DNA of 32,000 nucleotides from an uncultured delta proteobacterium (GCA_963825005.1 CAWGRP010000004.1:1-32000); one strand, 5' to 3'; shown: positions 12,775 to 31,291, counted from the first letter of the stretch. The notes: generated from the sequence alone by a model not told the origin. Program-made: numbers and translations.

Positions 12775-13137
12775 TTAGTTTGTCGCACAGCAGCGATTGA
12801 TCGGGATGACGTCGCCTCTGCTCTTGCAGAACTCCCCAAGCCGCCTCCGGTCCTGCTTCATCGTTGTCTCAGGGATCCGTTCCAGCACGGACAGCAGGAG
12901 GAACCTCTTGAAGAGATCAGCGTCATCCAGCCTGTAATGCATCCACTTCCCTTCTTTGCGGTCTTTCAGGAGTCCTGCTGACTTGAGCACGCCGAGATGA
13001 AAGGATACCTTCGGCTGGCTCATGTCGAATGCGGCGACGATCTCGCAGACGCAGAGTTCGCCGTGCTCAAGAAGCTTGAGAATTCTGAGCCGCGTTTCGT
13101 CGGAGAGGGCTTTCAATATGGTCACCATTTCTTTCAT
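12775..13137 (-). CDS. arsR: ArsR/SmtB family metalloregulatory repressor
   Basis: LKALSDETRLRILKLL, the ELCVCEI metal-binding Cys pair and MSQPKVSFHLGVLKSAGLL form the wHTH. The start overlaps the arsC stop (ATGA). Confidence 0.9.
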   Translation of the reverse strand: MKEMVTILKALSDETRLRILKLLEHGELCVCEIVAAFDMSQPKVSFHLGVLKSAGLLKDRKEGKWMHYRLDDADLFKRFLLLSVLERIPETTMKQDRRRLGEFCKSRGDVIPINRCCATN

Positions 13138-16312: not shown

Positions 16313-16323
16313 AGGGCCGATCT

Positions 16324-16497
16324 TCAATATAACCCCATTACCTGCAAAAACCAGAGGACAAGCACGGCTCCGACACCCAGGACAATGGCGATGTACTCGT
16401 CCAGTCGGTGGCGCAACTGTTTTGCCGCTGACTCTGCTTCGACCTTCTTCAAATCGGCTACGTCCGGACTTTCTCTATTTTCCCTATTTTCAGCCAT
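16324..16497 (-). CDS. Small C-terminally anchored membrane protein (57 aa), not in the supplied ORF track
   Basis: I translated this by hand: MAENRENRESPDVADLKKVEAESAAKQLRHRLDEYIAIVLGVGAVLVLWFLQVMGLY. It has a charged N-terminal half and a single C-terminal TM helix. Its stop overlaps the TTG of the Usp ORF. It lies 40 nt downstream of the YeiH-family gene. Confidence 0.4.
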   Translation of the reverse strand: MAENRENRESPDVADLKKVEAESAAKQLRHRLDEYIAIVLGVGAVLVLWFLQVMGLY

Positions 16498-16537: not shown

Positions 16538-17704
16538 CTATTTAAATACACCGAATTTTATCAAGATCAGGATCAACCCCACGCATATGCCGACTCTCAG
16601 GCATCCCGCTACATAGCCGATCAGAATGCCCTTCGGTCCGGCCTTTCTCAGATCGCCCAGCTTGGTCTGTAGCCCCAGACCGACAAAACAAAGGGTAAAG
16701 AACCAGTTCATCACCTTTTCCATGGCCTCGTTCGCCGGCTGCGGCCACAGGTGAAGGCAATTGCCGATCCATACGATAAGAAAGCCGAATACGAAGAGGG
16801 GGAACTTGTCTTTGAGAATCTGCCACGTATCAATCTTTGATGAGCGAAATTCCTGCGTCAGGGTCATGAAATAGATGAAAAGAACCCCGGCGGGAATGAG
16901 AACAACCCTCCCTATGTTAGAAAAACCTGCCACCTTGCCCGCCTCGAAACTGTAGTTGAATCCTGTAGCAATCACCTGGTTGGAATTGGGAACCCCCGCT
17001 GCGCACAGGATGCCGAACGTATAGCTTGATAGCTGGAGGAGTCTGCCGAAAAAAGGAAGCATAAAAAGGCAAAAGAGGCCGAAGGTGACCGAGACTGCAA
17101 TCGCGTACGCCACCTCCTCACTCTTGGCCCGCACCATTGGCGCTACCGCAACACAGGCCGAAACGCCGCACATGGAAAAAGCGGCTGAAAGAAGAGCGGT
17201 AAGGCTGTCTCCGAGCTTGAAGTAGCGGCCCATGAAAATAAAGACGAGCGCGCCTCCAAAGACCATCACTATCATCAGCAGGATACTGACGGCGCCCAGT
17301 TTGACCACGTCGCTTAGCATGTATTGAGATCCCAGCATGATGATGCCCACGTTCATAAAGACACCGCTGTATGTCAGGCCCGATTCCCACGACCTGGGAA
17401 CACCGACCACGTTCCGGATAAGTATGCCTACGACAAGGCCGATGACCACGTAGTTGAAGTGGAGCAGATCGACAAAAAGCCCCTTGCCGTAAATTGGAGG
17501 CAGCACCGCGTCGATGTATGCCAGCAGGTTCTGGATAGTGAAAGGAAAGTCGACCCCTGGCAATCCGCAAAGAACGGCAATGATTATCATCGCGAGAAGC
17601 CCCGGCCAGCTCGCCTTAAAGCTCGGGAGCGAACTCCATATTGTCGGCTTTCGAACCAGAGCCGCTTCGCTCAAGGCTTTTTCATATGTCGCATCTTGTG
17701 CCAT
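16538..17704 (-). CDS. YeiH/UPF0324 family membrane protein (putative sulfate-exporter family transporter)
   Basis: The product is a 388-aa polytopic protein. SAAFSMCGVSACVAVAPMV matches the family's conserved sICGxSAi segment. AAGGAG precedes ATG 17704. Confidence 0.7.
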   Translation of the reverse strand: MAQDATYEKALSEAALVRKPTIWSSLPSFKASWPGLLAMIIIAVLCGLPGVDFPFTIQNLLAYIDAVLPPIYGKGLFVDLLHFNYVVIGLVVGILIRNVVGVPRSWESGLTYSGVFMNVGIIMLGSQYMLSDVVKLGAVSILLMIVMVFGGALVFIFMGRYFKLGDSLTALLSAAFSMCGVSACVAVAPMVRAKSEEVAYAIAVSVTFGLFCLFMLPFFGRLLQLSSYTFGILCAAGVPNSNQVIATGFNYSFEAGKVAGFSNIGRVVLIPAGVLFIYFMTLTQEFRSSKIDTWQILKDKFPLFVFGFLIVWIGNCLHLWPQPANEAMEKVMNWFFTLCFVGLGLQTKLGDLRKAGPKGILIGYVAGCLRVGICVGLILILIKFGVFK

Positions 17705-17918: not shown

Positions 17919-20789
17919 TCACTTCAACCGCCATACTTCCCTGTATGCCAGCCTCTTAAGCAGCGTCTTGCGCAGGAAGTGTTCGGTGGTGCCGTTGACG
18001 CCGACCATCACGTCAACATTGTTTCGCGGATACTCCGCAAGGTTGGGTGTCCGCTTGCCCGCCTTATCTTCTATGTGCCAGGCCTGGATACGCTCGCCGT
18101 CGAAGTCATCGATGACGATCTTGAAATATCCTTCCGGGCCGGTATAGGTTCTGTTCTTCGCATCGAGGATAATCGGTTCGGGATTGTCGAGAATAAACTC
18201 ATTCAGCATGTAGCAGTGGCCGCAAACATCGGGCCGCATCACGTAGCGCGGATCATCAGCCCACGGCTTATCACGCTCAAGTTTCTGCACACCCGTCCAC
18301 GCATAGAGCGTCACCGTACCGCCCGCGAAATCACACGGAAGGTCAAGCTCTACATGGACGTCCTTGTACTGCATCATCACCTTCTGCTGGGACGGGCTGT
18401 ATTGAGGCAGCGTGTCGTAAACTTTCTGGTCAACGGGACCCAGTTGCTTGTCGGCCACCGTCTTTCCTTCACCGTCGATCAGAAGGAGACGCGCCGTCTT
18501 CCGGCCCGCATCGACACTTGCGACCCTGAGCTTGTAGTCGCCGAGCGCAGTCTCTTGCCCGGCTTTCAGCTCTATCTTCTCCGGTTCTTCATACGAGATG
18601 GTAAACGAGTCCATACCCGGACTGCCCATCTCCGCTATCTCCACAACGTCGGGACTCACCCACCGGGGGATCACGTAAGTCGCCCCCTCGGCGTAGACGT
18701 CGGGCAAAGAGTACTTCTGGCTCGCAAACGACTTATCGCCGTAGATCGGCTCATACTCTGAAAGTCCCGGCCCCAGGAGAATGTCGGCCCCGAATGCATT
18801 GCCGGAGTACTTGATGATGCGCATGGTTGCAACAGGCCTTCCCCAGAGCCATCGCGAGCCAAGAAAGCGGACCGCCTTACTCCCATCCCCAAGGGGAATA
18901 TCCTGCCAGAACAGGGGATTCCCGTCCCCCATCGGGAGCAGCTTCCAATAATCAATAGCCGCATGCTTTCTGACGACGAGGTAACTTTCCGTGCTCAGCA
19001 GATACGCCCTTTTCCCGAGGATGTATAAGGATTCGCCTGCAAGAGGCCGGACGTTCCTGTCGAGGCGCGACGTGTAGTACAAGCCGGCGGGAGGTATGAT
19101 GATCTTTCCCTTGTGATAGTCAACGTAGCTGCCCCGTATGACGAGGGCCTCCGCGGAGGTCAGCTTTTCTCCCTTGCGGTTCTCCACGAATTTACGCACA
19201 AGACCTCTTAGCTTGGGAACGAACGCGCAGTCCGGGTCGGGCGCGAACCACTTGGCCGACGCGATCGCGGGTGGATACGAAGTGAACTTCGATTTGACCA
19301 CCGGCACCCCGTACGTGGGGTCCGCAAGCCGTGTCAGAAATGTATCCTCCATCACCGATACAACAAGCTCACTCATACCGATAAAGAAGTCTGCGTTCTC
19401 TCTCCCTTCTTTCCACAGGATAAGGTTGTCGGTGCGTCTGAAGAACGCATCCCGCACATATGAGTTCTTCACCACATCGCTTTCGATCTTTCCAGCCACT
19501 ACCTTGAAATAGGGCCTGTCCCAGAAATCGGAGATCTTGATCGGCCCTGCGTAAGTCTCTTTATCGTTGGTCAGCTCGAACGCATCCTTGTTTTCCAGCA
19601 CCACGCGCTTCAACATACCGGTCATGGAATCGGGCTCGAGCCGGACCAGGTATCGTTTGTCCCTCGGCCAGGGCTCTCCGTCCTTCAGCTTCACGAGGTT
19701 GTGATAAATCATGAAAGAGACGGTACCGTTTGTCCAGCCCAGCGGCACGTCGTTTGCCCATGGCGCAAAATCAGAACCCTTGTACCAGGAGGGATCGACC
19801 ACGAGCTCTATGTGCAAATCAAGGTCGAAATCGGTGAGCGACATTCGCTCCTGGTCAGTCACCTTGTACTCCTGCTGCGTCACCGGCACGAGAAGCTTGG
19901 ATGCCAGCACCTTTTGGCCTGTCCAGTTGCGTACCTCCACCAGAATCCCGTTCTCCTTACGGAATGCATAAATTCTCTTGCTCCACCACCAGCGGTAGCT
20001 CTCCTGCCGGACCCCAACCACATACGGCCTGTCCAGCGAGAAGACCGCCTCCTTGATAACCGGATACTTCACCTCCGAGAAGAGCGCATCCTCATGTGTC
20101 ATCTTTTTTGTGGTCAGTCTCGTCGCCCCGTACTGGTATGAACTGGTGAGAAAGAAAGGTTCCTGCTGAGGGTTGACGCCTTCTTTCAAGTTCAGGTCCC
20201 GTGCCTTTGCCGGCTCAGGAAAAGAAGAAGAGACCGGCATTTCAGTCTGCCACCCGCCCGAGGGCGCGATCACGGCAAGCTCTCCGTAGGGCTTCCCGTA
20301 ATGATCCGTCGCGTAGTCGAACCAGAGGCGATATCCTGAATCATCGAGGAGGACCTTTCCCCTCTTCTTGACCGCAACGTCCGTCTTCGTTACCTGGGCA
20401 GTTCTGAGCGACAACAAGTAAGAGGTCTCTCCGAGAATCAGGAAGGGATCCCTTCGCAGAGGCTTCGCGTCCTGTGACGTGGACGACGCGTAGAAGAGGC
20501 CGCCGGCCGGAACAGAGACCTTGCTGTCTTTCACCTGGCTACCCCTGAGCACCACGCACTCCGCAAGCTCCTTTTCCTGGCCGTAATGATTCCTATGGGT
20601 CGTGTTGAGGAGGCCTCCGAGTTTGGGGATGTACGTCGCATCGTCAGCCGGGGGAAGGCCGTGTGGAGACTCTGTGCCCCATGCGTTGCCTCCCGCAAGG
20701 AGACCAATGATGAGTACCGCGGGAATAAGCAGGAGCGGGAGTATCCCTCGGTCGTACCGTTTAAGCAAACAAGCGATAAGGCTCAGCAT
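17919..20789 (-). CDS. Exported 956-aa protein of unknown function, composed of two tandem ~470-aa repeats
   Basis: This is an uninterrupted 2.87-kb ORF. A GGAGGGAAGG RBS precedes the start, which overlaps the upstream stop (ATGCTGA). The N-terminal signal/anchor is RGILPLLLIPAVLIIGLLAGGNAWG. The internal repeat is visible by eye; see findings. Confidence 0.85.
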   Translation of the reverse strand: MLSLIACLLKRYDRGILPLLLIPAVLIIGLLAGGNAWGTESPHGLPPADDATYIPKLGGLLNTTHRNHYGQEKELAECVVLRGSQVKDSKVSVPAGGLFYASSTSQDAKPLRRDPFLILGETSYLLSLRTAQVTKTDVAVKKRGKVLLDDSGYRLWFDYATDHYGKPYGELAVIAPSGGWQTEMPVSSSFPEPAKARDLNLKEGVNPQQEPFFLTSSYQYGATRLTTKKMTHEDALFSEVKYPVIKEAVFSLDRPYVVGVRQESYRWWWSKRIYAFRKENGILVEVRNWTGQKVLASKLLVPVTQQEYKVTDQERMSLTDFDLDLHIELVVDPSWYKGSDFAPWANDVPLGWTNGTVSFMIYHNLVKLKDGEPWPRDKRYLVRLEPDSMTGMLKRVVLENKDAFELTNDKETYAGPIKISDFWDRPYFKVVAGKIESDVVKNSYVRDAFFRRTDNLILWKEGRENADFFIGMSELVVSVMEDTFLTRLADPTYGVPVVKSKFTSYPPAIASAKWFAPDPDCAFVPKLRGLVRKFVENRKGEKLTSAEALVIRGSYVDYHKGKIIIPPAGLYYTSRLDRNVRPLAGESLYILGKRAYLLSTESYLVVRKHAAIDYWKLLPMGDGNPLFWQDIPLGDGSKAVRFLGSRWLWGRPVATMRIIKYSGNAFGADILLGPGLSEYEPIYGDKSFASQKYSLPDVYAEGATYVIPRWVSPDVVEIAEMGSPGMDSFTISYEEPEKIELKAGQETALGDYKLRVASVDAGRKTARLLLIDGEGKTVADKQLGPVDQKVYDTLPQYSPSQQKVMMQYKDVHVELDLPCDFAGGTVTLYAWTGVQKLERDKPWADDPRYVMRPDVCGHCYMLNEFILDNPEPIILDAKNRTYTGPEGYFKIVIDDFDGERIQAWHIEDKAGKRTPNLAEYPRNNVDVMVGVNGTTEHFLRKTLLKRLAYREVWRLK

Positions 20790-21103
20790 GTACAGTCCTT
20801 CCCTCCAATGCCTTCCAAAATAAAGAACGGCTTGATTTTCTTGAGCAGCGTCCGGTCCATGCCCGGCACCTGCAGCAACTCCTCGACCGTCTGAAAATCG
20901 CCGTTGTCTTTGCGGTACTTTACAATATTCTTTGCGAGTTCCGGTGTCATCAGGGGCACATTCTTCGTCAGATCGTCGGCGCTTGCCTTGTTGATGTTGA
21001 CAGTCTTTCCTTTAAGTTTCTCCTCCGCCGCCCAGGCGCTGATCGAAAGCACGAGAAAAAGACCGGCCAGCACCAAAACGAAAGCTACTCTCTTCTTTGT
21101 CAT
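20783..21103 (-). CDS. Exported ComEA-like helix-hairpin-helix protein (copy c)
   Basis: Signal peptide MTKKRVAFVLVLAGLFLVLSISAWA, then VNINKASADDL...LAKNIVKYRKDNGDFQTVEELLQVPGMDRTLLKKI, which follows the ComEA/HHH_3 consensus. The C-terminus is GGKDCTC. Start ATG 21103 has the better spacing to AAGGAGG; the track start is 21112. Confidence 0.8.
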   Translation of the reverse strand: MTKKRVAFVLVLAGLFLVLSISAWAAEEKLKGKTVNINKASADDLTKNVPLMTPELAKNIVKYRKDNGDFQTVEELLQVPGMDRTLLKKIKPFFILEGIGGKDCTC

Positions 21104-21118
21104 GACAGCCATCCTCCT

Positions 21119-22040
21119 TTACCACGTCCTCTGCAGTAGTACATATGCCGCGTTGTTTACATGCGCTTGGCCCGCGAATATCAGGACCAGCCGCAAGAGA
21201 AAGCCGCCCACCAGTAGCGCATAGAGGGCGACTGAAAATCGCATTCGATTTATAGCTCCTTTTCTCAAGACAAGAGCCATCAGGAACCAGCATGCCTAAA
21301 CCGAGGACGCCCGCCCACCATACCACGCCGTTCCCGCCTGTCACGAGATGGAGAAGGTCGCCACGCGATGGGCTGAAAAATGAAAACAATAGAAAGAGCA
21401 AGGTGAAGAGCAGATGAACAGGCAGCAATATCCGATAGCCCGATCGGAGCCAGAGCATAGGCTGCTCCATTGCCTCGGCAGGAGCAGCGCGGAGCGCTAT
21501 CACGCCGCCTGCCGCGAACCCCGTTGTCATCGCCGAGAAGCAGAAGAGGCCGGGTAGGGCCACATTTCTCCAAAGCGGAAGCGCCGAGGCGGAAAGGAGG
21601 ACGCCGGTATAGACGGATACCGCCAGGGCGACCGGCATCCCCGCAACTCCCAGTGCGCTGCGATAACTCTTCTTTCGCCATACGCTCCACCCCCCGATCA
21701 TTGGCAGACGAGCTTTCTGCGGTTCGGGGAGCCAGAAGAGTGCGTGTACAATGGAGATGGCGCCAAACAGGCTGAGGAGCCAAACGCCGAATGACATGGG
21801 AGAATCGGCGTTGAAGACGCGTAACGTGAACCAGAAGCGTGTCTTGTACATCAAGTCGAGAATGAGCATGGCGAGGCCGAAGGCGACTGAAAGCGGCGCA
21901 AGAAAGGCCGCGCTTCGAGAGCATACCTCGAATCCCTGCCCCTTCTTCCTGCTCGCCAGGACAGCGAGACAGAAGCTGCCGGCCCCCAGGCCCGCGAAGA
22001 AGAGGTCGAGCGCTACAGGAAGACCCCATGTCTCAACCAT
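21119..22040 (-). pseudogene. NrfD/PsrC-type integral membrane quinol-interacting subunit, frameshifted near its 3' end
   Basis: MVETWGLPVALDLFFAGLGAGSF is the NrfD-family N-terminus, and several TM helices follow. The start overlaps the psrB-like stop by 8 nt. The frame changes near 21281; the alternative frame gives LMALVLRKGAINRMRFSVALYALLVGGFLLRLVLIFAGQ...QRTW and stops at 21119. Confidence 0.8.
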
Positions 22041-22692
22041 CTGTTCCCTCCTCGGGGCCAAGCCTCTTCCAGAGCCATGCGAGCACGAGTGCTCCTGGAA
22101 TGAGACCGCCAAGCCACTTCCACGGCTGAAACGCGCGTACCGTATTGAGTGGCACGGGCTCAGGCAGTTGATAATCTCCGGGCGCGCCCTGAAGAGCATA
22201 GATCATATGGAGCCGTTCCTTTCTGCCGTAGGCAGGCGCATCCGGCCCTTTCCCATCGGGGTAGTAGGTGAGAGCATCGGTAGGGCACTTTGCGACACAG
22301 GCCGGCTCCTTACCCACGTCGATGCGCTGAATGCAGAAGCTGCACTTTCTCATTGTATGCTGGCTCGGGCTTTTTTTTGGAACCTGAAACGGGCAGGACT
22401 CTATGCAGTACCCGCAGCCGATGCATTTCGTTCTCAGGTGCTCCACGACGCTGTCATCCCTGCGGCGCAGGGCTCCGGCCGGGCATGCCGACACGCAGGA
22501 CGGGTCGTTGCAGTGAAAACAGGCGGTGGATGCAGACCATTCCTGCGCCTCGGGAAGATGGCCCGTCACGTGGCTCTTCACCCAGCGGAGTTGAATGCCG
22601 GGAGGGGCATCGTTTTCCAGTTGGCAGCCCACCTCGCAGGAGTGGCACCGGATGCACTTCTTTCCATCAAATAAAATCAGCCGCTCAGTCAT
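22033..22692 (-). CDS. 4Fe-4S ferredoxin-type subunit, PsrB/HybA-like, with a C-terminal hydrophobic helix
   Basis: Cys clusters are CIRCHSCEVGC, CFHCNDPSCVSACP, CIGCGYCIESCP and CSFCIQR...CVAKCP. The C-terminus WKWLGGLIPGALVLAWLWKRL looks like a TM anchor. Confidence 0.9.
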   Translation of the reverse strand: MTERLILFDGKKCIRCHSCEVGCQLENDAPPGIQLRWVKSHVTGHLPEAQEWSASTACFHCNDPSCVSACPAGALRRRDDSVVEHLRTKCIGCGYCIESCPFQVPKKSPSQHTMRKCSFCIQRIDVGKEPACVAKCPTDALTYYPDGKGPDAPAYGRKERLHMIYALQGAPGDYQLPEPVPLNTVRAFQPWKWLGGLIPGALVLAWLWKRLGPEEGTDG

Positions 22693-22764
22693 AGCTTGCT
22701 CAGTGTTTGGTGTTCAGCGTTCAGTCAACTGTTCACCGATTACCCTGATCGCTGTTCACGTTCT

Positions 22765-24918
22765 TCACGCTTTCACCAGCCTGCAACCGAATCCGTTGAA
22801 CTGGGCTGATACCTTGTCCCAGTTGGAAGGGATGATCGTGTTGATTGAAGTGCCCGCGTTTCCCGCAAAAGGGCTCGCCTTGGCCGGATGAGAAGGTGTC
22901 CAGACGAGTCCAGGCAGAATCATCTCACTCAGGGCAATCCTGACTTTGATCTTTCCCAATTCGGTTTCAAGATGGGCCCACTCGCCATCCTTCAGGCCCA
23001 GGCTTTTGACGGTATCAGGATGCACCTGCACGTAATTTCCTTTTGAAAACTGCGCCATGTATGCCGACCAGTTGGTGTAGGTGTGCTGCCAGTGCTGCAC
23101 CACTTTGCCCTGGAGGAAGATGAGAGGAAACGGCTTCGACTCTCCCGCATCCCCAAGCGGGCTCCCTTCCGGCTCCGACCACGCAATGGGTCCCAGCGCC
23201 GGGGAGCGAAGCTCCACTTTTCCATCTTCCGTGAGAAAGCGGTCATTCGGATAAAGCGTACCGTGCGTGCCAGGATGAGCCTCCGATGGACAGGGCCAGC
23301 TGATCCCGGTCGGCTCTTTCTTCAAACGCTCCAGTGTCAACCCGGACCAGGTCGGGGAGTGTTTCCTCACCATTTCAAAAATATCTTCTGGACTCTTCAG
23401 ATCCGGAAATTTTTCTCCGTTGATCTTTTTGCCGAGGTCAGCGTAAAAGCGCCAGTCTTCTGTCGTCTCTCCCGGGATGGGCACAGCCTGGTTGCGCCAG
23501 ACAATCTGTCGCTGCGCCCCGTACTGGGAACCTGAACTCTCGAACGGCATGGTGCCGGGGATAATGAGATGAGCGAGAGACGCCTCGTCGTCCATGAAGA
23601 AACCCCGGTAAACAACGAGGTCCACATTGCCGATCGCCTTTCGTACCCGGTTGGCATCGGGATAACGGCGGTAGCTGGAGTTCAAAAGCAGCACGTTCAC
23701 CCGTTTCTGTTCCATGGCAAAGAGAACTTTACGGAAACTGAGCGCGGCCGGCATGTCCTGGGCCCGGAAAGAATCCTCGAACGCTTCGATGCCTCCCGGT
23801 TTGCCGCCCTGGACATTCATGATCCCCTTTCCGGGACCGCTCAGATTGGCCGTCAGCGCCTGCAGGGCAATGATCGCACGCGCGCTCTGGATCGAATTGG
23901 TGTAGCGCGATATGGAGCCGCCGAGCCAAACCATCGTCTTCTTACTTGCGGCCAGGCGTGTGGCCAGTTCCACCACCTTCTCGGCCGGTATCCACGTGAT
24001 CTTCGCCACCATCTCCGGCGTGTAAAGCTCGGTTGCTTCAGCGAGTTCCTTGAACCCATTCACGTGTTGGGCAACGTAATTACGGTCATGCATGTTCTCT
24101 CTTATCATGAAGCGGATCAGTCCGAGCGCGAGAGCGCCATCGGTGCCCGGCCGCCCCATGAGCTGCTCGTCGCAGTGATTGCTGGTCGGTGTCCTGCGCG
24201 GATCCAGATAGATCACACGGACACCCTTGGCCCGGGCCTGATCGATCCAGCGTATGTAAGGCGGATACATCTCAGCAATATTTGCCCCGAACAGGACAAG
24301 CACTTCCGTATTCATCGCTTCGTCAAGCGTGGTTGTGGAAACAGGACTGCCGAGGCAGATGCGCAAGGCCGTCGCCGAACTCCCTATGCAGGTGTCTCCC
24401 GGCGAGCATATATCAGGGAACCCTGCTGCCCACAGTGCCATCTCCGCGGCGATCTCGCTCTCGTGTGATTCCCAGAGAGGCGCAAAGAGCGTTACCCGGT
24501 GCGCGTAGTCATCGGGGAATTCTTCCTTCACCTTTATGACCCGCTCTGCCACGGTATTGAGCGCTTCTGCGTAGGAGATACGCTTCCAGTTTGTCCCCTC
24601 GCGTTTCAGTGGATAAAGGATCCGGTGAGGACTGTAGGTGAGCTCCACCAGCGCCTGTCCCTTGGGGCACATCGTCCCGTCGGTCCAGGTATTGCCCGGG
24701 TTGCCATACGCGTTGACGACCCGGTCATTCCTGACCTGCACAAGCGTGGTACATCGCACCTGACAGAACTGGCAGCAGCTCATCACCTCGCGGTCGATCT
24801 GCGCCGGCGGCTCTGCGGCTGCCCCCGTCGTTATGCCGGGCGCGCTGAGAGCACCGGCTGCCAGTGCGCCGGCCTTCAGGAAATTCCGGCGGGTGATGCT
24901 CATCTGCCGTTTTTTCAT
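22765..24918 (-). CDS. Tat-exported molybdopterin oxidoreductase catalytic subunit, polysulfide/thiosulfate reductase (PsrA/PhsA)-like
   Basis: The Tat signal is MSITRRNFLKAGALAAGALSA. The FeS motif is CCQFCQVRCTTLV...MCPKG. The candidate Mo-ligand Cys context is PGDTCIGSS. The ORF is an intact 717 aa and is followed by FeS and NrfD-type genes. Confidence 0.9.
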   Translation of the reverse strand: MKKRQMSITRRNFLKAGALAAGALSAPGITTGAAAEPPAQIDREVMSCCQFCQVRCTTLVQVRNDRVVNAYGNPGNTWTDGTMCPKGQALVELTYSPHRILYPLKREGTNWKRISYAEALNTVAERVIKVKEEFPDDYAHRVTLFAPLWESHESEIAAEMALWAAGFPDICSPGDTCIGSSATALRICLGSPVSTTTLDEAMNTEVLVLFGANIAEMYPPYIRWIDQARAKGVRVIYLDPRRTPTSNHCDEQLMGRPGTDGALALGLIRFMIRENMHDRNYVAQHVNGFKELAEATELYTPEMVAKITWIPAEKVVELATRLAASKKTMVWLGGSISRYTNSIQSARAIIALQALTANLSGPGKGIMNVQGGKPGGIEAFEDSFRAQDMPAALSFRKVLFAMEQKRVNVLLLNSSYRRYPDANRVRKAIGNVDLVVYRGFFMDDEASLAHLIIPGTMPFESSGSQYGAQRQIVWRNQAVPIPGETTEDWRFYADLGKKINGEKFPDLKSPEDIFEMVRKHSPTWSGLTLERLKKEPTGISWPCPSEAHPGTHGTLYPNDRFLTEDGKVELRSPALGPIAWSEPEGSPLGDAGESKPFPLIFLQGKVVQHWQHTYTNWSAYMAQFSKGNYVQVHPDTVKSLGLKDGEWAHLETELGKIKVRIALSEMILPGLVWTPSHPAKASPFAGNAGTSINTIIPSNWDKVSAQFNGFGCRLVKA

Positions 24919-24952
24919 GATCTACAGCCCTGACTCCAAATCGACACTCCCC

Positions 24953-27061
24953 CTATGCCTTCTTCGCGTGCGGAGAATCGGGCTCAAAAAGTTCATACAT
25001 GATGCGGCCTTCAAAATTGGGCGGCGGCACCAGGCCGTACATATGCATAATGGTGGGCATCACGTTCATCATGTGGCCACCCTTCGAAACATCGTTGTTC
25101 TTTTTTATGCCGGGACCAACCGCTATGAACGAGGTAAGCGCGTTGCCATGGTACCCGGTAAAATGTCTGCGCGGATTGTCCCATATCTGTCCGTCACGGC
25201 CGAAAGCGCCAAAATTAATCTGGTAAAGTCCGTCATTCTTCTTGCCCGGCACCTTGATTCCCGATGCATCACGAAAGCCGCAGAACTGCACGTCACCGGC
25301 ATACCAGCCGTAATCGCCCTTGTATATATTCTCAACCCGGTCTGCAATCTGTGTGTACTGCTGTCCTTCAGGGTCTTTGAGCTTCTTCAATTCGGCGATG
25401 ATTAAGTCGCGCAGCTTTTCATACTCGTTGTACTCCACGATGCCGTTCGGTTCGCGCCCCTTGAGGTTGATGAATATGCCCGGGTTCCAGGAAGTGTATG
25501 CCTTGGTCCTTGACCAGTCGATGTCATCGTTATCATACGTCCGCTTCTTGCCCTCCACCTCAGGCTTGACGTTGAGGAGCCCCAGTTTCATCAGCCATGA
25601 ATTGGGCTCGAAGTCCTTCTTCGTCGGTCCCCATGCGTGATCGGATATCATCATGAAGCACGTATCTTTGGGTAGTTCTTTCAGTATCCTTGCCAGCTCC
25701 TTGTCAACGTATTGTGTGAATTCCAGCATCAGCTTGCCGTTGCCGTATTTCTCTTCGTACTCCTCCGACCAGTCGGGATTGCCTTCAATGCGGGTCATGT
25801 TGTGGTTGAGGCGGTCATACGGCATATTGGAGAACCAGAAGAAGTCCCACGGCTTATTCTTCATCAGCCAAAGCACAATGTTATTCTGTTCGCGAGTTGC
25901 ATCGTAGCAGTCCTCGATTAGCGTCTCCTCTTCCTGGACGTAAGCGATAAACGCCGTATAATCGTATTCGAAAGGTACGTTCGGTGTCCGATAGTAGCCC
26001 ACCGCATCATATACCTCCTTCTGGAGTGAGGGCGGGTAGGTCCACCGATCGGTCGGCACGACAGGCCCGTCGAAGAACTGGTCAATCGGCTCGTGCCGTT
26101 CCGGCGCCGTGGGGTCTTGCAGAAGACGGTAACGATACAACTGCAGGGCGCCATCATCCGTATTAATCAGCTCCGGCTTCCAGCGGACGATAGCCCGCCT
26201 CCCATTCGGAAATTCAATGGGGACATACTTTGACCACTCACCCTCTTTCAGGGTCAGCTTGAGATCGCTGTATGCGATGGTTACCGTGTTGCCGGGATTG
26301 AGCGTTAGTTCAAGGGGAACTTGCTGGTCCTTACGGCGGATCGCGGTGGACACCTTACCACCCGAGAAAGTCACCTTGGTTTTCAAGGGGCCTGCGGCTC
26401 TGTGTTTCTCCTGGGTGTAATAGACGTGACCCATGTTGAATGGCTGATCGCCCAACCCTGGCGCGCCCTTGCCGGACAGCATGAAGCCATCCTTCAGCCG
26501 TTCCGGTGGCCAGGACATTGCCGTGCCGCAGAGGCCGACTTTCACGCCTCCCTCAGCCAGCATGAAAGGCACAGTTGGGGCGTGCAACCTGAAGAACCGG
26601 TTGATGCCCGAAGTCTGGAAGGCAGTCCGGTCATAGATCTGCCACGGATGCGATCCGAAGAAATTATTCTGGCCCGGACCTACTCCTGTATTGTAGGCAG
26701 CCCATGCGTCGACAGACATGCCGCGGAAAATATTTTCGAACTCCCCGTAACTGCCTTGCGTCAAGAGCTTCTTGAACGTGGGGAGTTTGCCCTGTTTAGA
26801 CCATTCAATTATTTTTTCCATGCTGCATGAGTCAAGGCCCATCAGCAGAATTTTCGGCTTCTTACCGGCCTTCGATCCCTTGCCCGTTCTCTCCTTGGCC
26901 GGGGCAGCACTCGACGCCTTTGCCGCGAGTCCGGCCACTGCGGTTCCCAGAATGCCGCCGGCCAGTTTTTTTAACGCACTGCGCCGGGACAGACCTTTAT
27001 TTTCGTCTATCGTGCTGTCATCCGCGCTATCATCGATGTTGTCATTGATGGTATCATCCAT
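24953..27061 (-). CDS. Tat-exported AlkP-superfamily phosphohydrolase/phosphomutase-like protein (COG3379-like)
   Basis: An acidic N-terminus is followed by the Tat motif LSRRSALKKLAGGILGTAVAGLAA. KILLMGLDSCSMEKIIEWSKQGKLPTFKKLLTQGSYG and MMISDHAWGP follow the COG3379 / type I phosphodiesterase pattern. The RBS is AAGGAGG. Confidence 0.75.
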   Translation of the reverse strand: MDDTINDNIDDSADDSTIDENKGLSRRSALKKLAGGILGTAVAGLAAKASSAAPAKERTGKGSKAGKKPKILLMGLDSCSMEKIIEWSKQGKLPTFKKLLTQGSYGEFENIFRGMSVDAWAAYNTGVGPGQNNFFGSHPWQIYDRTAFQTSGINRFFRLHAPTVPFMLAEGGVKVGLCGTAMSWPPERLKDGFMLSGKGAPGLGDQPFNMGHVYYTQEKHRAAGPLKTKVTFSGGKVSTAIRRKDQQVPLELTLNPGNTVTIAYSDLKLTLKEGEWSKYVPIEFPNGRRAIVRWKPELINTDDGALQLYRYRLLQDPTAPERHEPIDQFFDGPVVPTDRWTYPPSLQKEVYDAVGYYRTPNVPFEYDYTAFIAYVQEEETLIEDCYDATREQNNIVLWLMKNKPWDFFWFSNMPYDRLNHNMTRIEGNPDWSEEYEEKYGNGKLMLEFTQYVDKELARILKELPKDTCFMMISDHAWGPTKKDFEPNSWLMKLGLLNVKPEVEGKKRTYDNDDIDWSRTKAYTSWNPGIFINLKGREPNGIVEYNEYEKLRDLIIAELKKLKDPEGQQYTQIADRVENIYKGDYGWYAGDVQFCGFRDASGIKVPGKKNDGLYQINFGAFGRDGQIWDNPRRHFTGYHGNALTSFIAVGPGIKKNNDVSKGGHMMNVMPTIMHMYGLVPPPNFEGRIMYELFEPDSPHAKKA

Positions 27062-27141
27062 ACTACGCCCTCCTTATATGAGAAGCCCCGTGGGCTGATG
27101 TTCAATATTGGACCGGCTGGACTGTGACAAAACTGTACCTG

Positions 27142-27504
27142 CTAGCACTTGGACGGTTTGAGACTCGGCTCATCATCGTCGTCCCCATCACTCTTGGCTG
27201 GGGGCAGAAGTATGTCTCCCTTTGAATCAACCTGCAGCGACATCTTCTTGAGAATCTCCTGCGTCATGCCAGGCACCTTCAAGAGGTCATCAGTTTTTTT
27301 GAAGGCGCCGTTCTTGGTGCGGTAATCGACGATCGCCTTGGCGAGGACCGCCGTGACTCCGGGAACCTTGGCGAGCCGAGTCGCACTCGCTTTGTTCAGG
27401 CTCGTCTTTCCTCCTGCTTGAGCTTCCGCCGTAGCGGTATATCCCATCAGGAACAGGGCCGCCACCAGGATAAGTGCCAACAGACGATATGTTCTCGTAG
27501 GCAT
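27142..27504 (-). CDS. Exported ComEA-like helix-hairpin-helix protein (copy b)
   Basis: Signal peptide MPTRTYRLLALILVAALFLMGYTATAEA, then SLNKASATRLAKVPGVTAVLAKAIVDYRTKNGAFKKTDDLLKVPGMTQEILKKM. The acidic tail is DGDDDDEPSLKPSKC. The RBS is AAGGAGGAG. Confidence 0.8.
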   Translation of the reverse strand: MPTRTYRLLALILVAALFLMGYTATAEAQAGGKTSLNKASATRLAKVPGVTAVLAKAIVDYRTKNGAFKKTDDLLKVPGMTQEILKKMSLQVDSKGDILLPPAKSDGDDDDEPSLKPSKC

Positions 27505-27615
27505 CTTTTCTCCTCCTTCTTAATCGTGATGGCGCACGGCGGGCAACAGGTCCTCATCCGCCATGTGCCGTCACACGCATTTCATACACGCCTATAGTCC
27601 ATCAGTTTATCTTCA

Positions 27616-27945
27616 TTAGTACCTTGGCAGCTTGGCCTCATCATCGTCGCCGCCGCTTTTCGCAGGCCCGAAAGCCAGGGCCGGCGCCACTGCATCGACC
27701 TTCTCCTTCGTCATGCCGGGTACCTTCATCAGGTCATCAGCAGACTTGAATGAACCCGATTTCGTGCGTGTCTCAACCATAGCCTTTGCCATGTCGCCGG
27801 AGATTCCCGGGACCTTTCCCAGTTGGTCCGCAGTCGCTGCGTTTACGTTCACCTTCGCCGGTCCTTGCGCGCACACGGCTGCTGCCAGGATAAAAGCAAA
27901 ACCCAGGCAAACAACAAACCCTGCAACTAATGTCTTCTTAATCAT
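27616..27945 (-). CDS. Exported ComEA-like helix-hairpin-helix protein (copy a)
   Basis: Signal peptide MIKKTLVAGFVVCLGFAFILAAAVCA, then VNVNAATADQLGKVPGISGDMAKAMVETRTKSGSFKSADDLMKVPGMTKEKVDAV. The acidic tail is GGDDDEAKLPRY. The RBS is AAAGGAGGA. Confidence 0.8.
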   Translation of the reverse strand: MIKKTLVAGFVVCLGFAFILAAAVCAQGPAKVNVNAATADQLGKVPGISGDMAKAMVETRTKSGSFKSADDLMKVPGMTKEKVDAVAPALAFGPAKSGGDDDEAKLPRY

Positions 27946-28134
27946 CTCTCTGTCCTCCTTTTGTGTTTAGTTTGACACGTTAAATCCTGCGTTTTTCTCT
28001 GCTGTCTATTATCAGTCAACCAGAAACACGTACCGTATTAGGCCGGAACCGGGGAAGTCCTGGGCGATCTAAAATCAGCGTCCGAGCGCTCCCCCAGCTC
28101 CGCGAGGCCTGCGATACGATCTATATGTACATAC

Positions 28135-29496
28135 TTACTTCGCCATTTTCCAGATGGCCGGGCAGTCACCGCTCAAGGGTTCTGCCTTGCTCAGGTCTTT
28201 GCCGGCCAGCCCCGGATAATCCTTTCCATACTTGTAAGACCGATGAATCATGTTGGCGGCAAGATCCTCCCTCGCCGATACGCTGTGTTTCGCGTCGTCA
28301 TAGAAGCAGTTAATCTTGTCCCCTGGAAAAACAGGGTTAACCCATTCCCAGACCACTTGCGGCTTCGGGTCATGCGTAACCTCGAAGACGTGACCATGAT
28401 TGCTCGATGTCACCAGGATATTGCCGTTGGGAAGCTTCTGCGCCGACCCCTGGTACGTAGTATAGAAACTGTTTCCGATGACCGGCTCAAACTGCCAGAC
28501 AATCTTACCCGTCTTCGGATCCATCTCTACAACGCGGGAACGGTTTTTTTCCGGCCGTTTCCAGCCGTTGTCAAATATCTGAAAATTGCCGTTTTCAAGC
28601 CGCGTTACATGGTGAGGACCGAAGAGAATCTGATCTCCGTCGTCCACGAAGCCGGGTTTTTTGCCTTTGCCGTAGGTAGTCGGATTGCCCCAGCGATACT
28701 CGATCGCGCCCGTCTTGTGATTGATAAGGAAGAATTCGCCGAAATTTCGGGAATTGACGAGGATCTGATCGGTCGCAGGGATATAGTCGAGCGTGTTGAA
28801 ATGCGTCCAGTCAGGCACGTGCATATATCCGCTTGCTTTGGGCAGCTGGTAGTTGACGTTCAGTTTCTTCGGCCCCTTTCCTATGTGGTCCCAGGCATGC
28901 CACTCCCATACTACCTTCTTGTCCCTGTTGACCTCCTTCACGTAATCCGGCCAGAGGCCCGTATATTTCATTCCTTCGAATTCGAATTCCTTAGGCATGG
29001 TCTTCGGGTTACGCCCTTTCTTGATCGCTTCGGCAGCGCTCTTGTATTCCCAGCCCAGCACAAGAATATTCCCGTTCGGCATGATGTTGAAGCAGTGGTG
29101 CTGAACCATGGTCGGGGTATACTCCTTGTATTCCCAGACAACGTTTCCATCCCAATCGATTTCCTGAATTAGACCGGCGGTGCCACCGAACTTGACAGGC
29201 GCCTTGTCGGGGTCCGGCCTTCCGGCCCGCAGAAGATTCCCATTCGGCAGGAGCATCGCGAAAAGCCCCGGCATATACGGGCTCTTCCATGTATGGACGA
29301 CGTTTCCCTCCATATCGATGAGATAGGTGGTCGTGCTCAAACTGGGAGCAAACAACATGTAACCATCGTATGCCTTTTCCTTGTTGTATCTGATTAGTCC
29401 GGTTGGCCCGTAGAGCAGCTCATAGGCCCCTGCTGAAATTACTGAAACCGCGATAAACGTCATAACGGCTAACGCACACAAACATTTTTTGGACAT
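28135..29496 (-). CDS. Exported arylsulfotransferase (ASST)-like beta-propeller protein
   Basis: Internal start ATG 29496 is preceded by GAGGGGGAAGG. The signal peptide is MSKKCLCALAVMTFIAVSVISAGA. Blade-like motifs repeat: LPNGNLL, MPNGNILV, LENGNFQIFDNG and LPNGNILVTSS, each followed by VVWEY, VVWEWHAWDH, IVWQFE or VVWEW. This pattern is typical of proteins annotated as aryl-sulfate sulfotransferase family. Confidence 0.6.
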   Translation of the reverse strand: MSKKCLCALAVMTFIAVSVISAGAYELLYGPTGLIRYNKEKAYDGYMLFAPSLSTTTYLIDMEGNVVHTWKSPYMPGLFAMLLPNGNLLRAGRPDPDKAPVKFGGTAGLIQEIDWDGNVVWEYKEYTPTMVQHHCFNIMPNGNILVLGWEYKSAAEAIKKGRNPKTMPKEFEFEGMKYTGLWPDYVKEVNRDKKVVWEWHAWDHIGKGPKKLNVNYQLPKASGYMHVPDWTHFNTLDYIPATDQILVNSRNFGEFFLINHKTGAIEYRWGNPTTYGKGKKPGFVDDGDQILFGPHHVTRLENGNFQIFDNGWKRPEKNRSRVVEMDPKTGKIVWQFEPVIGNSFYTTYQGSAQKLPNGNILVTSSNHGHVFEVTHDPKPQVVWEWVNPVFPGDKINCFYDDAKHSVSAREDLAANMIHRSYKYGKDYPGLAGKDLSKAEPLSGDCPAIWKMAK

Positions 29497-29722
29497 GCCT
29501 TCCCCCTCGTAAGAAGTTTTTATATTGAAGTGCCACACGGCCCTTCCACCAACTCTTTTCCCACCCCCTCTCAGCGTATAACTTGTTGCGCTAAACCAAG
29601 AAGCCCTATGCACGCAGCGTGCGTCTCTGTGAAGCGCGTTACAGTCTTCTCGACCGTCTGATACGTAGTAATCAAGCCGTAGGAAAATTATTACAGACGA
29701 TCGGAGAGATCCTGCTGATTAC

Positions 29723-29740
29723 ATGCGAACCCCATGCCAG
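29723..29740 (-). promoter_or_regulatory. Sigma-54 (-24/-12) promoter
   Basis: The minus strand reads CTGGCATGGGGTTCGCAT. Against the consensus YTGGCACGrNNNTTGCW, the GG and GC doublets have the exact spacing. The site is in the 433-nt gap between the sigma-54 activator gene and the ASST-like gene. Confidence 0.6.
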
Positions 29741-29844
29741 CGTAAAGAGTCTCAGGATATTTTGTAATCGCCTGAAATTAAAGGCAAGTAGCTGCCCCGT
29801 GACCAGACGAGGAGAAGCCGGAAAGCAAGAAATGTAAAGCCTCC

Positions 29845-29875
29845 TGCACAGATGTGCCTGTAGCTGCACAGATGG
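29845..29875. promoter_or_regulatory. Direct repeats, candidate enhancer (UAS) for the adjacent sigma-54 activator
   Basis: CTGCACAGATG occurs at 29845..29855 and again at 29865..29875, a 20-nt period. The first copy forms the inverted repeat GCACA-GA-TGTGC. The repeats centre roughly 120 nt upstream of the -24/-12 element. Confidence 0.45.
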
Positions 29876-29929: not shown

Positions 29930-31291
29930 CTACATCTCCAGGCCGTACTGCGCCATCTTATCGTAAAAGGCGCGGCGGCTGATGCCGAGGAGGCGTGCGG
30001 CCATACTGCGGTTATTATCCGCAGCCTTCAGGGCTTTGACGATTGCTTTCTTCTCCGCCTCTTCAACCACCTGCCTCAAAGGCAGTGGCGTTCCATCCAC
30101 CCCACCGCTGGTCTCTTTCGCGGGACCTCGTTCAATGCTGAGGCAGTCGAGCGTGAGCGCCTCATCTTCGGCAAGAAGAACCGCTCGCTCCAGGATGTTG
30201 GCCAGTTCCCTGATGTTTCCCTTCCAGGGCCAGCTGTACATCGCCTCCAGCACGTTAGGTTTGATCGTGCTGATCTTCTTCTTGTATGCCTTGCAGAACT
30301 TGTTTAAGAAATGATCGATGAGGAGAGGAATGTCTTCCAGTCGCTCTCTCAAAGGAGGCAGGTGGAGAGGAACCACGGCCAGGCGATAGTACAGGTCATC
30401 ACGAAACATTTCCTCTTCTATCATTGGACGTAGATCACGGTTCGTCGCTGATATGAAACGCACGTCAATCTGGATTGTCTGATTTCCTCCAACGGGTTTT
30501 ATCTCTCTTTCCTGGATTGCCCGGAGCAGTTTCACCTGGGTGGAAAGTTTGATATTGGAGATCTCATCCAGGAATACAGTTCCCCCCTGGGCCTCCTCAA
30601 GCAGGCCTCTTTTGGCCCTTATGGCCCCGGTGAATGCGCCTTTGACATGACCGAAGAGCTCGCTCTCCAAAAGTGTTTCCGTCAACGCGCCGCAGTCGAT
30701 CGGCACAAAGGGATGGTCCTCCCGGGAGCTGTTCGCGTGAATCATCCGGGCCAGCAGCTCTTTGCCTGTTCCGCTTTCCCCTTCGATCAACACGGAGGCT
30801 TGCGAGTCGGATATCTTTTCAACCTTTCGCAGGAGTTCGTGCATCGCCCTGCTTGACCCAACGACCATCTTTGGGAACTCTCCGTTCTCTTCCTGAATGC
30901 GCAACGTATCCAGCTTCCGATGCAATTTTCCATATTCGAGTGCCCTGCGGAACAGGATCTCCGCCTCCTGCATCTTGAACGGTTTGGTGATATAGTGAAA
31001 AGCGCCGAGCTTTATAGCCTGCACTGCCGTCTCGATGGTTCCCACGCCGGTGATGATGATAAAAGGCAAGGTGGAATCGGAAGCTCTGACCCGTTCGAGA
31101 AGCTCGAGGCCGCTGAGGTCATCCATGGCCATGTCTGACAGGACAAGGTCAAACATGGTTTCTTCGATCGCCTTCCAGCCTTCCTCGCCGGACCCGGCAG
31201 TTGTCACGTCATAGCCAAGCCGGTTCAAGAATCGGGCAAGAACCTGCCTCATCTCCGGCTCATCTTCCACGATGAGAATTTTCTCAGCCAT
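29930..31291 (-). CDS. Sigma-54-dependent response regulator (NtrC family: REC + AAA+ + Fis-type HTH)
   Basis: REC domain: ILIVEDEPEMRQVL...DLVLSDMAMDD. Walker A: GESGTGKE. GAFTGA is present (GHVKGAFTGA). C-terminal HTH: NRSMAARLLGISRRAFYDKM. Confidence 0.95.
   Translation of the reverse strand: MAEKILIVEDEPEMRQVLARFLNRLGYDVTTAGSGEEGWKAIEETMFDLVLSDMAMDDLSGLELLERVRASDSTLPFIIITGVGTIETAVQAIKLGAFHYITKPFKMQEAEILFRRALEYGKLHRKLDTLRIQEENGEFPKMVVGSSRAMHELLRKVEKISDSQASVLIEGESGTGKELLARMIHANSSREDHPFVPIDCGALTETLLESELFGHVKGAFTGAIRAKRGLLEEAQGGTVFLDEISNIKLSTQVKLLRAIQEREIKPVGGNQTIQIDVRFISATNRDLRPMIEEEMFRDDLYYRLAVVPLHLPPLRERLEDIPLLIDHFLNKFCKAYKKKISTIKPNVLEAMYSWPWKGNIRELANILERAVLLAEDEALTLDCLSIERGPAKETSGGVDGTPLPLRQVVEEAEKKAIVKALKAADNNRSMAARLLGISRRAFYDKMAQYGLEM

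Follow-up and report, generated by a model that had tools for sequence, protein, structure and literature searches.

The DNA analysed here is a 32,000 nt stretch from an uncultured delta proteobacterium (GCA_963825005.1, CAWGRP010000004.1:1-32000), referred to below as the window. Its minus strand carries a cluster of 12 co-directional genes (29496 to 15872, ~14 kb) that recurs in all 80/80 species-level loci, from the Desulfobacterota, Acidobacteriota, Tectomicrobia and Methylomirabilota. The cluster combines an arylsulfate sulfotransferase (ASST)-like protein, three secreted helix-hairpin-helix (HhH) proteins, an alkaline phosphatase (AlkP)-like protein, a molybdoenzyme module, a 956-aa secreted protein termed BIG and a YeiH-family transporter. 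The gene content and its conservation, the C-terminal motifs with their pairing to particular modules and the intact catalytic residues were read directly from these loci. They support a real functional unit under predicted sigma-54-type control. By analogy with known sulfur carriers, we tentatively propose that the cluster could act as a periplasmic group-transfer relay for sulfur oxyanions using small carriers with a reactive C-terminal residue, a reading to which we give an appreciable chance, although short of an even one.

Full-text literature searches returned no description of this gene combination, in line with the first-pass annotation, and no characterised system was matched by BIG or by the HhH proteins. 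The Geobacter ASST-Dsb cluster, the Sutterella ASST neighbourhoods and the ORM2 benzene cluster were considered and rejected as unrelated. A cross-phylum cluster with a new BIG family paired with YeiH and with new HhH subfamilies apparently represents an undescribed system.

Conservation and predicted control of the cluster

The locus set was obtained by a scan at one genome per species, which gave 80 loci. To count the components, the window proteins served as BLAST queries for labelling the six-frame open reading frames (ORFs) in the loci; for GC-rich loci, ORF maps were relied on only where BLAST or Pfam labels agreed with them. Lack of conservation of the neighbourhood had been named at first pass as one outcome that would refute the cluster; the survey found the combination conserved in the 80 loci and across four phyla. 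BIG was present in 80/80 loci, with a YeiH-family gene directly after it in 79/80. HhH proteins were found in 73/80, ASST in 62/80, the NtrC-type activator in 43/80, the 57-aa membrane protein (s57) in 38/80 (38-40) and the USP-like protein (U151) in 37/80 (37-39). The molybdoenzyme catalytic subunit (MoA) occurs in 31/80 loci, a tetrahaem cytochrome in 30/80 and, together with the cytochrome, an Ig-like DUF1573 protein in 28/80; the AlkP-like gene is accessory (8/80). Gene order differs between loci and the pairings of components persist. The unit in the window is collinear with a Syntrophorhabdales metagenome-assembled genome (MAG) from peat at ~75% nucleotide identity. An exact look-up of the BIG sequence gave no entry; MoA is 100% identical to a database protein (P0350), and by this and the BIG cluster the window appears to derive from a Syntrophorhabdales-like MAG.

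Besides Acidobacteriota, Tectomicrobia and Methylomirabilota, the host groups are Syntrophales, Syntrophorhabdales, Desulfatiglandales, Desulfobacterales and Desulfovibrionaceae, the last including gut Mailhella. Cultured carriers of the cluster include Desulfosarcina variabilis (Montpellier), Pseudodesulfovibrio karagichevae (9FUS), strain NaphS2 and Mailhella massiliensis. The great majority of hosts belong to lineages that reduce sulfate or to syntrophs related to them, and their habitats are peat, groundwater, sediment and gut. BIG-YeiH-s57-U151, 58-66% identical to the Desulfobacterota type, also stands on two short contigs that are binned with a Thermoplasmata archaeon MAG (L068) and a Spirochaetota MAG (L076); both assignments are probably binning errors and not true hosts. 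TonB-dependent or CarboxypepD_reg-type outer-membrane receptor genes adjoin the cluster at L001:1164-3740, L002:1-1423 and L085:1-3788, which hints at active uptake of a bulky substrate.

The nine consecutive minus-strand genes reported by the first-pass annotation were present where it had placed them, and the gaps and overlaps it gave were correct (intergenic gaps of 189, 111, 80, 34, 72 and 15 nt; overlaps of 8 and 7 nt). Because the YeiH, 57-aa membrane-protein and USP-like genes that follow them recur in other loci, the unit in the window is taken to run on through these three. Inside the cluster, no intrinsic terminators were found above chance. The soluble products carry a Sec or Tat signal in all cases except the iron-sulfur subunit (FeSB), so that the proposed export of every soluble product held for most of them. 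Since FeSB lacks a signal and has a C-terminal transmembrane helix, it is presumably co-exported with MoA.

A -24/-12 element lies ~230 nt upstream of the ASST start, downstream of the NtrC-type and histidine kinase genes. The kinase-activator pair and the promoter had been claimed before and are present; in the window alone, however, 36 promoter matches (<=2 mismatches) were found against 29 expected, i.e. not above chance. The enrichment appears across the other loci, where 36 -24/-12 sites were observed upstream of cluster genes against 7.3 expected (p ~2e-15), preceding ASST, BIG, x162 and MoA genes. Up to five diversified ASST paralogs occur per locus, each behind its own predicted sigma-54 promoter. 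In the window, two CATCTGTGCAG direct repeats 20 nt apart, ~105-135 nt upstream of the -24 element, are candidate binding sites for the NtrC-type activator. By eye, a receiver region can be made out in the translation of the activator, together with an AAA+ region containing GESGTGKE and a C-terminus that resembles HTH_8; the ortholog in L003 has Response_reg, Sigma54_activat and HTH_8 domains. The histidine kinase gene precedes the NtrC gene in 30 related loci. No Rfam family was found in the long leader or elsewhere in the window.

Carrier-like proteins, enzymes and BIG

C-termini were surveyed in 122 HhH proteins from 77 non-redundant loci. They fall into a CxC class (68), a class with an acidic tail and PSKC (47) and a Tyr class (six), with one aberrant end; the three window proteins represent one class each (KLPRY, SLKPSKC and GKDCTC). 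PSKC proteins directly follow an ASST gene in 38/47 cases, and an independent search found the PSKC ending in 69 of the 79 database homologs of HhH protein 2. P-S-K-C is invariant in 30 aligned homologs of this protein, most of the fold being variable. Its AlphaFold2 (AF2) model has a confident core and a tail (residues 101-120) that is predicted to be disordered, with a per-residue confidence (pLDDT) of ~47. CxC proteins always stand beside BIG/YeiH or a redox module: CTC tails adjoin the molybdoenzyme module in 27/27 cases and CNC tails the tetrahaem cytochrome in 25/25. Locus L030 (a Thermodesulfobacteriota single-amplified genome) has both redox modules, and there the cytochrome-adjacent HhH protein ends in DDCNC and the Mo-adjacent one in DECTC.

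Conserved terminal residues extend beyond the HhH proteins. Tyr is terminal in 20/21 members of the secreted x162 family (e.g. L001:7659-8147) and in 36/37 s57 proteins, Cys in 28/35 USP-like orthologs, and the ending MK[S/A]Y, similar to that of the HhH proteins of the Tyr class, is found in 28/108 ASSTs. In the cytochrome and DUF1573 controls no conserved terminal Tyr or Cys was found, and no fusions of HhH domains to ASST or to cytochromes were found. A PDZ protein beside the Desulfosarcina cluster was considered as a binder of C-terminal tails and rejected, as it is not conserved.

MoA contains Molybdop_Fe4S4 (PF04879), Molybdopterin (PF00384) and Molydop_binding (PF01568) domains. Residues C49, C52, C56 and C84 of the FS0 motif and the metal ligand C177 are invariant in 29 orthologs. 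The position of the formate dehydrogenase (FDH) His is Ile/Val in 29/29 and that of the FDH Arg is Gln in 21/29, and the score against the formate dehydrogenase model TIGR01591 is 308 (cut-off 666). On these residues and scores MoA is a Cys-ligated Mo/W-bis-pyranopterin guanine dinucleotide (bisPGD) enzyme and not a formate dehydrogenase. It was initially described as Psr-type. The subunit architecture agrees with this: as in PsrABC/PhsABC, the Cys-ligated Mo-bisPGD subunit is Tat-exported and is joined by a four-cluster ferredoxin and a quinol subunit of the NrfD type. In sequence, however, MoA lies outside the PsrA/PhsA group and closer to FdhF/Nap-type enzymes, yet without the FDH His and Arg (130.6 bits with PsrA, 2vpw, versus 232 for FdhF-type enzymes; 213.8 bits against the PhsA model PRK15488, cut-off 694). 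Unlike Psr/Phs, ~11 loci lack NrfD and have an HhH gene between MoA and a different FeS protein, and the enzyme is always embedded in a BIG-YeiH-HhH-ASST cluster.

MoA orthologs (48-77% identity) occur in three gene orders and always within these clusters, once in a decayed remnant; the reductase is thus not a passenger, contrary to the earlier suggestion that it is merely co-transcribed. The remnant (L084:10001-16059) retains MoA-FeSB-NrfD-HhH and BIG fragments (70, 79 and 451 aa), with no YeiH gene.

A role in the handling of metals or metalloids (As, Sb, Se, Te or Hg), with the Cys-tailed proteins binding the element and the molybdoenzyme reducing its oxyanion, is highly improbable. In its favour, soft metals are typically bound by terminal Cys and CxC, selenate and arsenate are substrates of ABC-type molybdoenzymes, and arsenic-resistance genes lie 2-4 kb downstream in the window; the ars genes are, however, not conserved by the cluster in other loci, MoA scores far below the cut-offs of ArrA, YnfE and other models, and the ASST, the terminal Tyr motifs and YeiH would be left unexplained.

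Family searches confirmed the ASST, three HHH_3, molybdopterin, 4Fe-4S and NrfD assignments made at first pass. The HhH proteins had also been called ComEA-like, which holds for the HHH_3 fold. Their fold neighbours are ComEA (best 8dss_B and 2duy), Tex and PsbU, the core is 34-39% identical to ComEA domains and, like ComEA, they are secreted and have a ~65-residue (HhH)2 domain. Unlike ComEA, each continues into a disordered tail whose final residues, Cys, CxC or Tyr, are invariant. The comEA model TIGR01259 gave 48.7, 51.6 and 54.8 bits for the three window proteins against a cut-off of 152.35, and the repeat-region model TIGR00426 was passed by HhH protein 3 alone (59.2 versus 53.1). The canonical HhH hairpin consensus is GhG; all 119 hairpins scored read G-h-[T/N/D/S/K], never GhG, and so lack the second glycine. 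Among the conserved neighbours of the 80 loci there were no ComEC, nuclease, pilus or competence genes, ComEC not having been the object of a specific search. The three HhH proteins are probably not DNA-uptake proteins.

For the AlkP-like assignment, the window protein gave nothing but a sub-threshold Sulfatase match (16.3 bits, cut-off 25), and orthologs in L003 and L085 carry PF01663. Metal-ligand-like motifs (GLD, SDH and GYH) were read from its sequence. The presence of an AlkP/NPP-superfamily protein in the operon, together with the identity of the HHH_3 domains to ComEA structures, underlies the second interpretation offered at first pass, namely that ComEA-like binders and an NPP-like enzyme capture and hydrolyse extracellular DNA or other phosphodiesters and that the reductase is fortuitous. 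This is scarcely probable at all. The HhH proteins fail the ComEA cut-off, the hairpin consensus and the gene context, which makes DNA capture unlikely, and a sulfate-ester function lies nearer to what was observed; moreover, the AlkP-like gene is found in so few of the loci, the invariant Cys/Tyr termini covary with the ASST or redox module, and the reductase is orthologous and cluster-specific.

BIG had been described as an orphan, but has >245 database homologs at 56-87% identity, with a mean column identity of 67% across phyla. It is an internal tandem duplication, the halves matching each other at E 1e-33. In the AF2 model (pLDDT 70) each module of ~450 aa consists almost wholly of beta-strands and closes with a conserved amphipathic helix. 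A CGHC motif at residues 856-859 is kept in 115/115 homologs. A PDB sequence search with a BIG profile returned noise only (uL6 at E ~0.2). The best Foldseek match was 3u2g, a DUF1608 surface-layer (S-layer) domain (E 1.4e-6, probability 1.0, TM-score only 0.31); a distant single-module relative, P0155, matches PF07752 weakly (18 bits, cut-off 30) and another distant relative carries PGF-CTERM. Like the Methanosarcina S-layer protein MA0829 (tandem DUF1608), BIG has tandem all-beta modules behind a signal peptide. Unlike MA0829, it has no Pfam match, an invariant CGHC, helix-ended modules and bacterial diderm hosts, is extremely conserved in sequence and is obligately paired with a transporter.

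These resemblances raise the idea that the cluster builds a structure of the envelope or cell surface through which electrons are exchanged with the outside, with BIG as an S-layer-like lattice and the HhH proteins as adaptors docking cytochromes or the molybdoenzyme. The tetrahaem cytochrome with its Ig-like DUF1573 partners in ~30 loci would suit such a structure, as would PsbU, a structural HhH protein, among the fold neighbours. The explanation nevertheless seems very unlikely: BIG is far more conserved than usual S-layer proteins and has only a Sec signal in diderm hosts, the ASST and YeiH would have no role, and the Mailhella loci lack redox partners. The window YeiH protein passes PF03601 (181.5 bits, threshold 24.5) and misses the TIGR00698 cut-off (114 versus 232.6), and is accordingly a divergent family member. 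An ortholog of the USP-like protein gives a weak Usp match.

The window ASST matches PF05935 at 98.4 bits (threshold 24.2) and PF14269 at 54 bits. The catalytic set of the Escherichia coli enzyme (EcASST) comprises H252, H356, N358, R374 and H436, the last being the catalytic His (PMC13426309). In 113 cluster homologs the counterparts are HH133/134, H232xN234, R250 and H295 (100%), with an N-to-R spacing of 16 as in EcASST, as mapped by motif and spacing and not by structural alignment. By this mapping the catalytic set is intact. Cluster ASSTs thus share with EcASST, DhAST and Cpz4 the Pfam family, the periplasmic location and the conserved His/His-x-Asn/Arg/His set. Unlike these three, they are shorter (453 aa in the window versus ~600 aa for EcASST), apparently consist of the propeller only, have no Dsb partner and are linked to carrier-like proteins and respiration genes. 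In a phmmer search the cluster ASST did not match 3ELQ, and its only PDB match was Cpz4 (E 3e-5). As regards the N-terminal beta-sandwich domain of EcASST, the indications are the shorter length, a Pfam match that starts at profile position 58 and the missing 3ELQ match. Known ASSTs sulfate phenols and Tyr peptides in reversible group transfers, and their physiological role is in general unknown (PMC13426309).

The E. coli ASST has a dedicated DsbL/DsbI pair (PMC10932419). A dedicated Dsb system was considered for the cluster ASSTs and rejected: these proteins have no conserved cysteine and hence need no such system. The same observation bears on a thiol-disulfide (or persulfide/polysulfide) relay without sulfuryl chemistry, in which MoABC or the cytochrome would feed quinol electrons to the CGHC of BIG and to the CxC proteins. 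These sites would serve to reduce or isomerise disulfides of the envelope, or would carry sulfane sulfur in the way that Sud works for Psr, with the ASSTs as clients or bystanders. The matching of CxC tails to redox modules, the invariant CGHC and the DsbL/DsbI precedent speak for this scheme. We consider it quite unlikely in view of the cysteine-free ASSTs, their frequency and specific pairing with PSKC carriers, the terminal Tyr motifs, for which it has no role, and the invariant link to a sulfite-associated transporter, which it leaves unexplained.

A possible relay for sulfur oxyanions

What follows on reactions, substrate and flow direction is what we infer from the features above. In the proposed relay, aryl or other organic sulfate esters would reach the periplasm, in some genomes perhaps imported by a TonB-type receptor. 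The ASSTs would take the sulfuryl group onto the catalytic histidine and pass it to the terminal Tyr hydroxyl or Cys thiol of an HhH protein, giving Tyr-O-sulfate or S-sulfocysteine on the flexible acidic tail. The sulfonate would be released reductively as sulfite, either directly or via thiol exchange with the CxC-tailed HhH protein, with electrons from the quinol-linked MoA-FeSB-NrfD module or, in other genomes, from the tetrahaem cytochrome. YeiH, with BIG and the 57-aa and USP-like proteins, would move sulfite (or sulfate) over the inner membrane for dissimilatory or assimilatory reduction. In loci that encode it, the AlkP-like protein could act as a hydrolase on ester sulfate or on sulfate bound to a carrier. 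The operon would be switched on from the sigma-54 promoter by the histidine kinase together with the NtrC-type activator. The sulfate-reducing hosts, the multiple ASST paralogs, the nearby TonB-type receptors and the ester-rich habitats fit such a relay. The first interpretation given at first pass, a sulfur or sulfate-ester module, gains from the intact ASST catalytic set and from the linked YeiH gene, whose family is tied to sulfite. That the cluster gives sulfate-reducing and related anaerobes an unrecognised respiratory or assimilatory route, organosulfate respiration, with the sulfuryl group of environmental or host aryl sulfate esters relayed via Tyr/Cys arms, reduced to sulfite in the periplasm by the dedicated molybdoenzyme or cytochrome and imported by a YeiH-BIG complex, is on present indications rather unlikely.

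Precedents exist for parts of this scheme. Reduction of S-S and S-SO3 bonds is established for periplasmic ABC-type Psr/Phs/Ttr molybdoenzymes, and Sud of Wolinella is a periplasmic protein that hands covalently bound sulfur to Psr. A terminal cysteine on a flexible arm is characteristic of sulfur carriers such as SoxY. In the Sox system (SoxYZ, SoxAX, SoxB and SoxCD), sulfur intermediates are bound to a carrier cysteine, and the enzymes working on the carrier include SoxB, which is a dimetal hydrolase, and the molybdoenzyme SoxCD (PMC5336275). The cluster is likewise periplasmic and its HhH carriers have Cys on a flexible C-terminal arm; by analogy, the PSKC, CxC and Tyr tails would correspond to the carrier, the ASST to the loader, the AlkP-like protein of some loci to the hydrolase and MoA to the molybdoenzyme. 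Unlike Sox, there is no homologous component and no SoxZ, and the carriers are helical HhH proteins and not Ig-like as SoxY, with the motifs PSKC, C[T/N]C or Y in place of GGCGG. The loader would be a His-dependent sulfotransferase and not a haem enzyme, the molybdoenzyme belongs to the bisPGD (DMSO reductase) family and not to the sulfite oxidase family, and the hosts are anaerobic sulfate reducers and syntrophs, the direction being likely reductive. In its working the cluster would therefore resemble both Sox and Psr/Phs with Sud while being a member of neither.

Several points weigh against the relay. Menaquinol is a weak donor for the reduction of sulfate esters, and we know of no precedent for transfer from an ASST to Cys. 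In gut Mailhella, no redox module was found within 10 kb of the cluster; a hidden module beside these clusters was considered and rejected, the flanking genes being housekeeping genes. BIG, the most conserved protein, is left with its role unexplained. Given the identity to ComEA, the HhH core may yet bind polyanions or DNA. In Salmonella, sulfite resistance depends chiefly on YeiH (PMC12880088), and a YeiH-family protein has been proposed as a sulfite exporter in Bordetella pertussis (bioRxiv 10.64898/2026.04.22.720190). As the family is described in terms of resistance and export, uptake of sulfite from the periplasm is assumed here, and the flow could be in the opposite direction.

In the oxidative direction, sulfite exported by YeiH would be captured on the CxC/Cys carriers by disulfide sulfitolysis and then either oxidised or passed by the ASST to phenolic acceptors or water, and the quinone pool would receive the electrons through the cytochrome or Mo module. 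The cell would thereby detoxify sulfite, gain energy or sulfate toxic phenols. Both CxC and CGHC could form disulfides, and the sulfate/sulfite couple is very reducing, so that quinone reduction would be favourable. The described functions of YeiH-family proteins (PMC12880088; 10.64898/2026.04.22.720190) and the reversibility of ASST transfers (PMC13426309) agree with this direction. It is nonetheless judged unlikely: up to five ASST paralogs with their own promoters fit the scavenging of diverse donors better than detoxification, sulfate reducers already consume sulfite in the cytoplasm, and the TonB-type receptors by some clusters suggest substrate uptake.

Cluster coordinates, surroundings and significance

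The features of the cluster and of its regulatory region are listed in Table 1.

Table 1. Features of the cluster and its upstream region in the window.
Feature	Coordinates	Strand	Basis or remark
Sensor histidine kinase	31284..32000	-	C-terminal part only, gene leaves the window; HisKA, HATPase_c
NtrC-type sigma-54 enhancer-binding response regulator	29930..31291	-	Read from translation
Two direct CATCTGTGCAG copies, candidate upstream activating sequence	29844..29874	-	Read from sequence
Sigma-54-type -24/-12 element, TGGCATggggtTCGCA / TGGCATggggtTCGC	29725..29739	-	GG-N10-GC
Secreted ASST-like six-bladed-propeller sulfotransferase, 453 aa from ATG 29496	28135..29496	-	PF05935, PF14269
Secreted HhH protein 1, Tyr-terminal class, ends DDDEAKLPRY	27616..27945	-	HHH_3, 64 bits
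Secreted HhH protein 2, PSKC class, acidic tail ending DDDDEPSLKPSKC (SLKPSKC)	27142..27504	-	HHH_3, 66 bits
AlkP-superfamily-like protein, 702 aa, Tat motif SRRSALK	24953..27061	-	Weak Sulfatase match
Mo/W-bisPGD oxidoreductase catalytic subunit (MoA), Tat motif TRRNFLK	22765..24918	-	Pfam domains
Four-cluster ferredoxin subunit (FeSB), C-terminal transmembrane helix	22033..22692	-	Fer4_11, 72 bits; helix read from translation
NrfD-type quinol-interacting membrane subunit	21119..22040	-	PF03916, 110 bits
Secreted HhH protein 3, CxC class, ends EGIGGKDCTC	20783..21112	-	HHH_3, 74 bits; likely start ATG 21103
BIG, 956-aa secreted all-beta protein	17919..20789	-	No Pfam match
YeiH-family (PF03601) inner-membrane transporter	16538..17704	-	181 bits
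57-aa protein with a single transmembrane helix (s57), Tyr-terminal (MGLY)	16324..16497	-	Conservation among loci
USP-like protein (U151), ~146 aa from likely ATG 16312, Cys-terminal (VIEC)	15872..16327	-	Conservation; no signal peptide

The NrfD gene has an apparent +/-1 frameshift near 21285, its true C-terminus lying in another frame with the stop codon at 21121-21119. Three further genes of the window are split: a pyridine-nucleotide disulfide oxidoreductase gene (5648-7121), a second molybdopterin oxidoreductase gene (7284-10086) and a pair (13134-14388) in which an ArsM-like methyltransferase gene runs into a low-molecular-weight (LMW)-phosphatase/ArsC-like gene. This suggests long-read assembly indels or gene decay in the MAG, and because of these three the NrfD frameshift is likewise ascribed to assembly error or decay. 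Stable stem-loops without U-tracts were found in the gaps after the ASST gene (27985-28134, minus strand; -54.5 kcal/mol, z -2.4) and after the first HhH gene (27505-27615, minus strand; z -1.9). These structures are unusual to a slight degree only; they could stabilise the mRNA or direct its processing and in this way set the ratio of carrier to enzyme.

Downstream, a cation-diffusion-facilitator transporter gene (15006-15842, plus strand) converges on the USP-like gene and marks the boundary of the cluster. It is followed by an arsenic-resistance set (11649-14388, minus strand) of an Acr3-type SBF transporter, ArsR, an LMW-phosphatase-type ArsC and an ArsM-like S-adenosylmethionine methyltransferase, and by the second molybdoenzyme (7284-11370, minus strand; split Molybdopterin/Molydop_binding ORFs), which has a separate four-cluster ferredoxin of 283 aa. 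At 3956-4790 (minus strand), ~11 kb from the cluster, a gene for a DsbB-like membrane protein of the VKOR family adjoins an unassigned 131-aa ORF, possibly a disulfide-forming system. A 699-aa type I phosphodiesterase/NPP protein is encoded at 31-2130 (plus strand; PF01663, 128 bits); the AlkP-like protein was considered as its close paralog, which was rejected as the two are only remotely related (E 0.006).

The cluster is widespread across phyla, apparently undescribed and found in hosts relevant to sulfur and carbon cycling in peat, groundwater and sediments; Mailhella and Desulfovibrio among the hosts give it relevance to the human gut. Its components are labelled in the source databases as ComEA, formate dehydrogenase or hypothetical, labels that are probably misleading. 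The HhH proteins may represent a new kind of carrier, an HhH domain that ends in Cys, CxC or Tyr, with the motif of the tail corresponding to the redox partner, and the cluster offers a testable physiological role for aryl sulfotransferases independent of 3'-phosphoadenosine 5'-phosphosulfate. Ester sulfates make up a major share of the organic sulfur of soils and peat, and the gut is rich in phenyl and cresyl sulfates. If organosulfate respiration does take place, it would bypass ATP-dependent sulfate activation and give the ASSTs their long-missing physiological role. If the relay holds, sulfate reducers could use ester sulfates directly as electron acceptors or sulfur sources, which would matter for sulfide production in the gut and for cryptic sulfur cycling where wetlands are low in sulfate.

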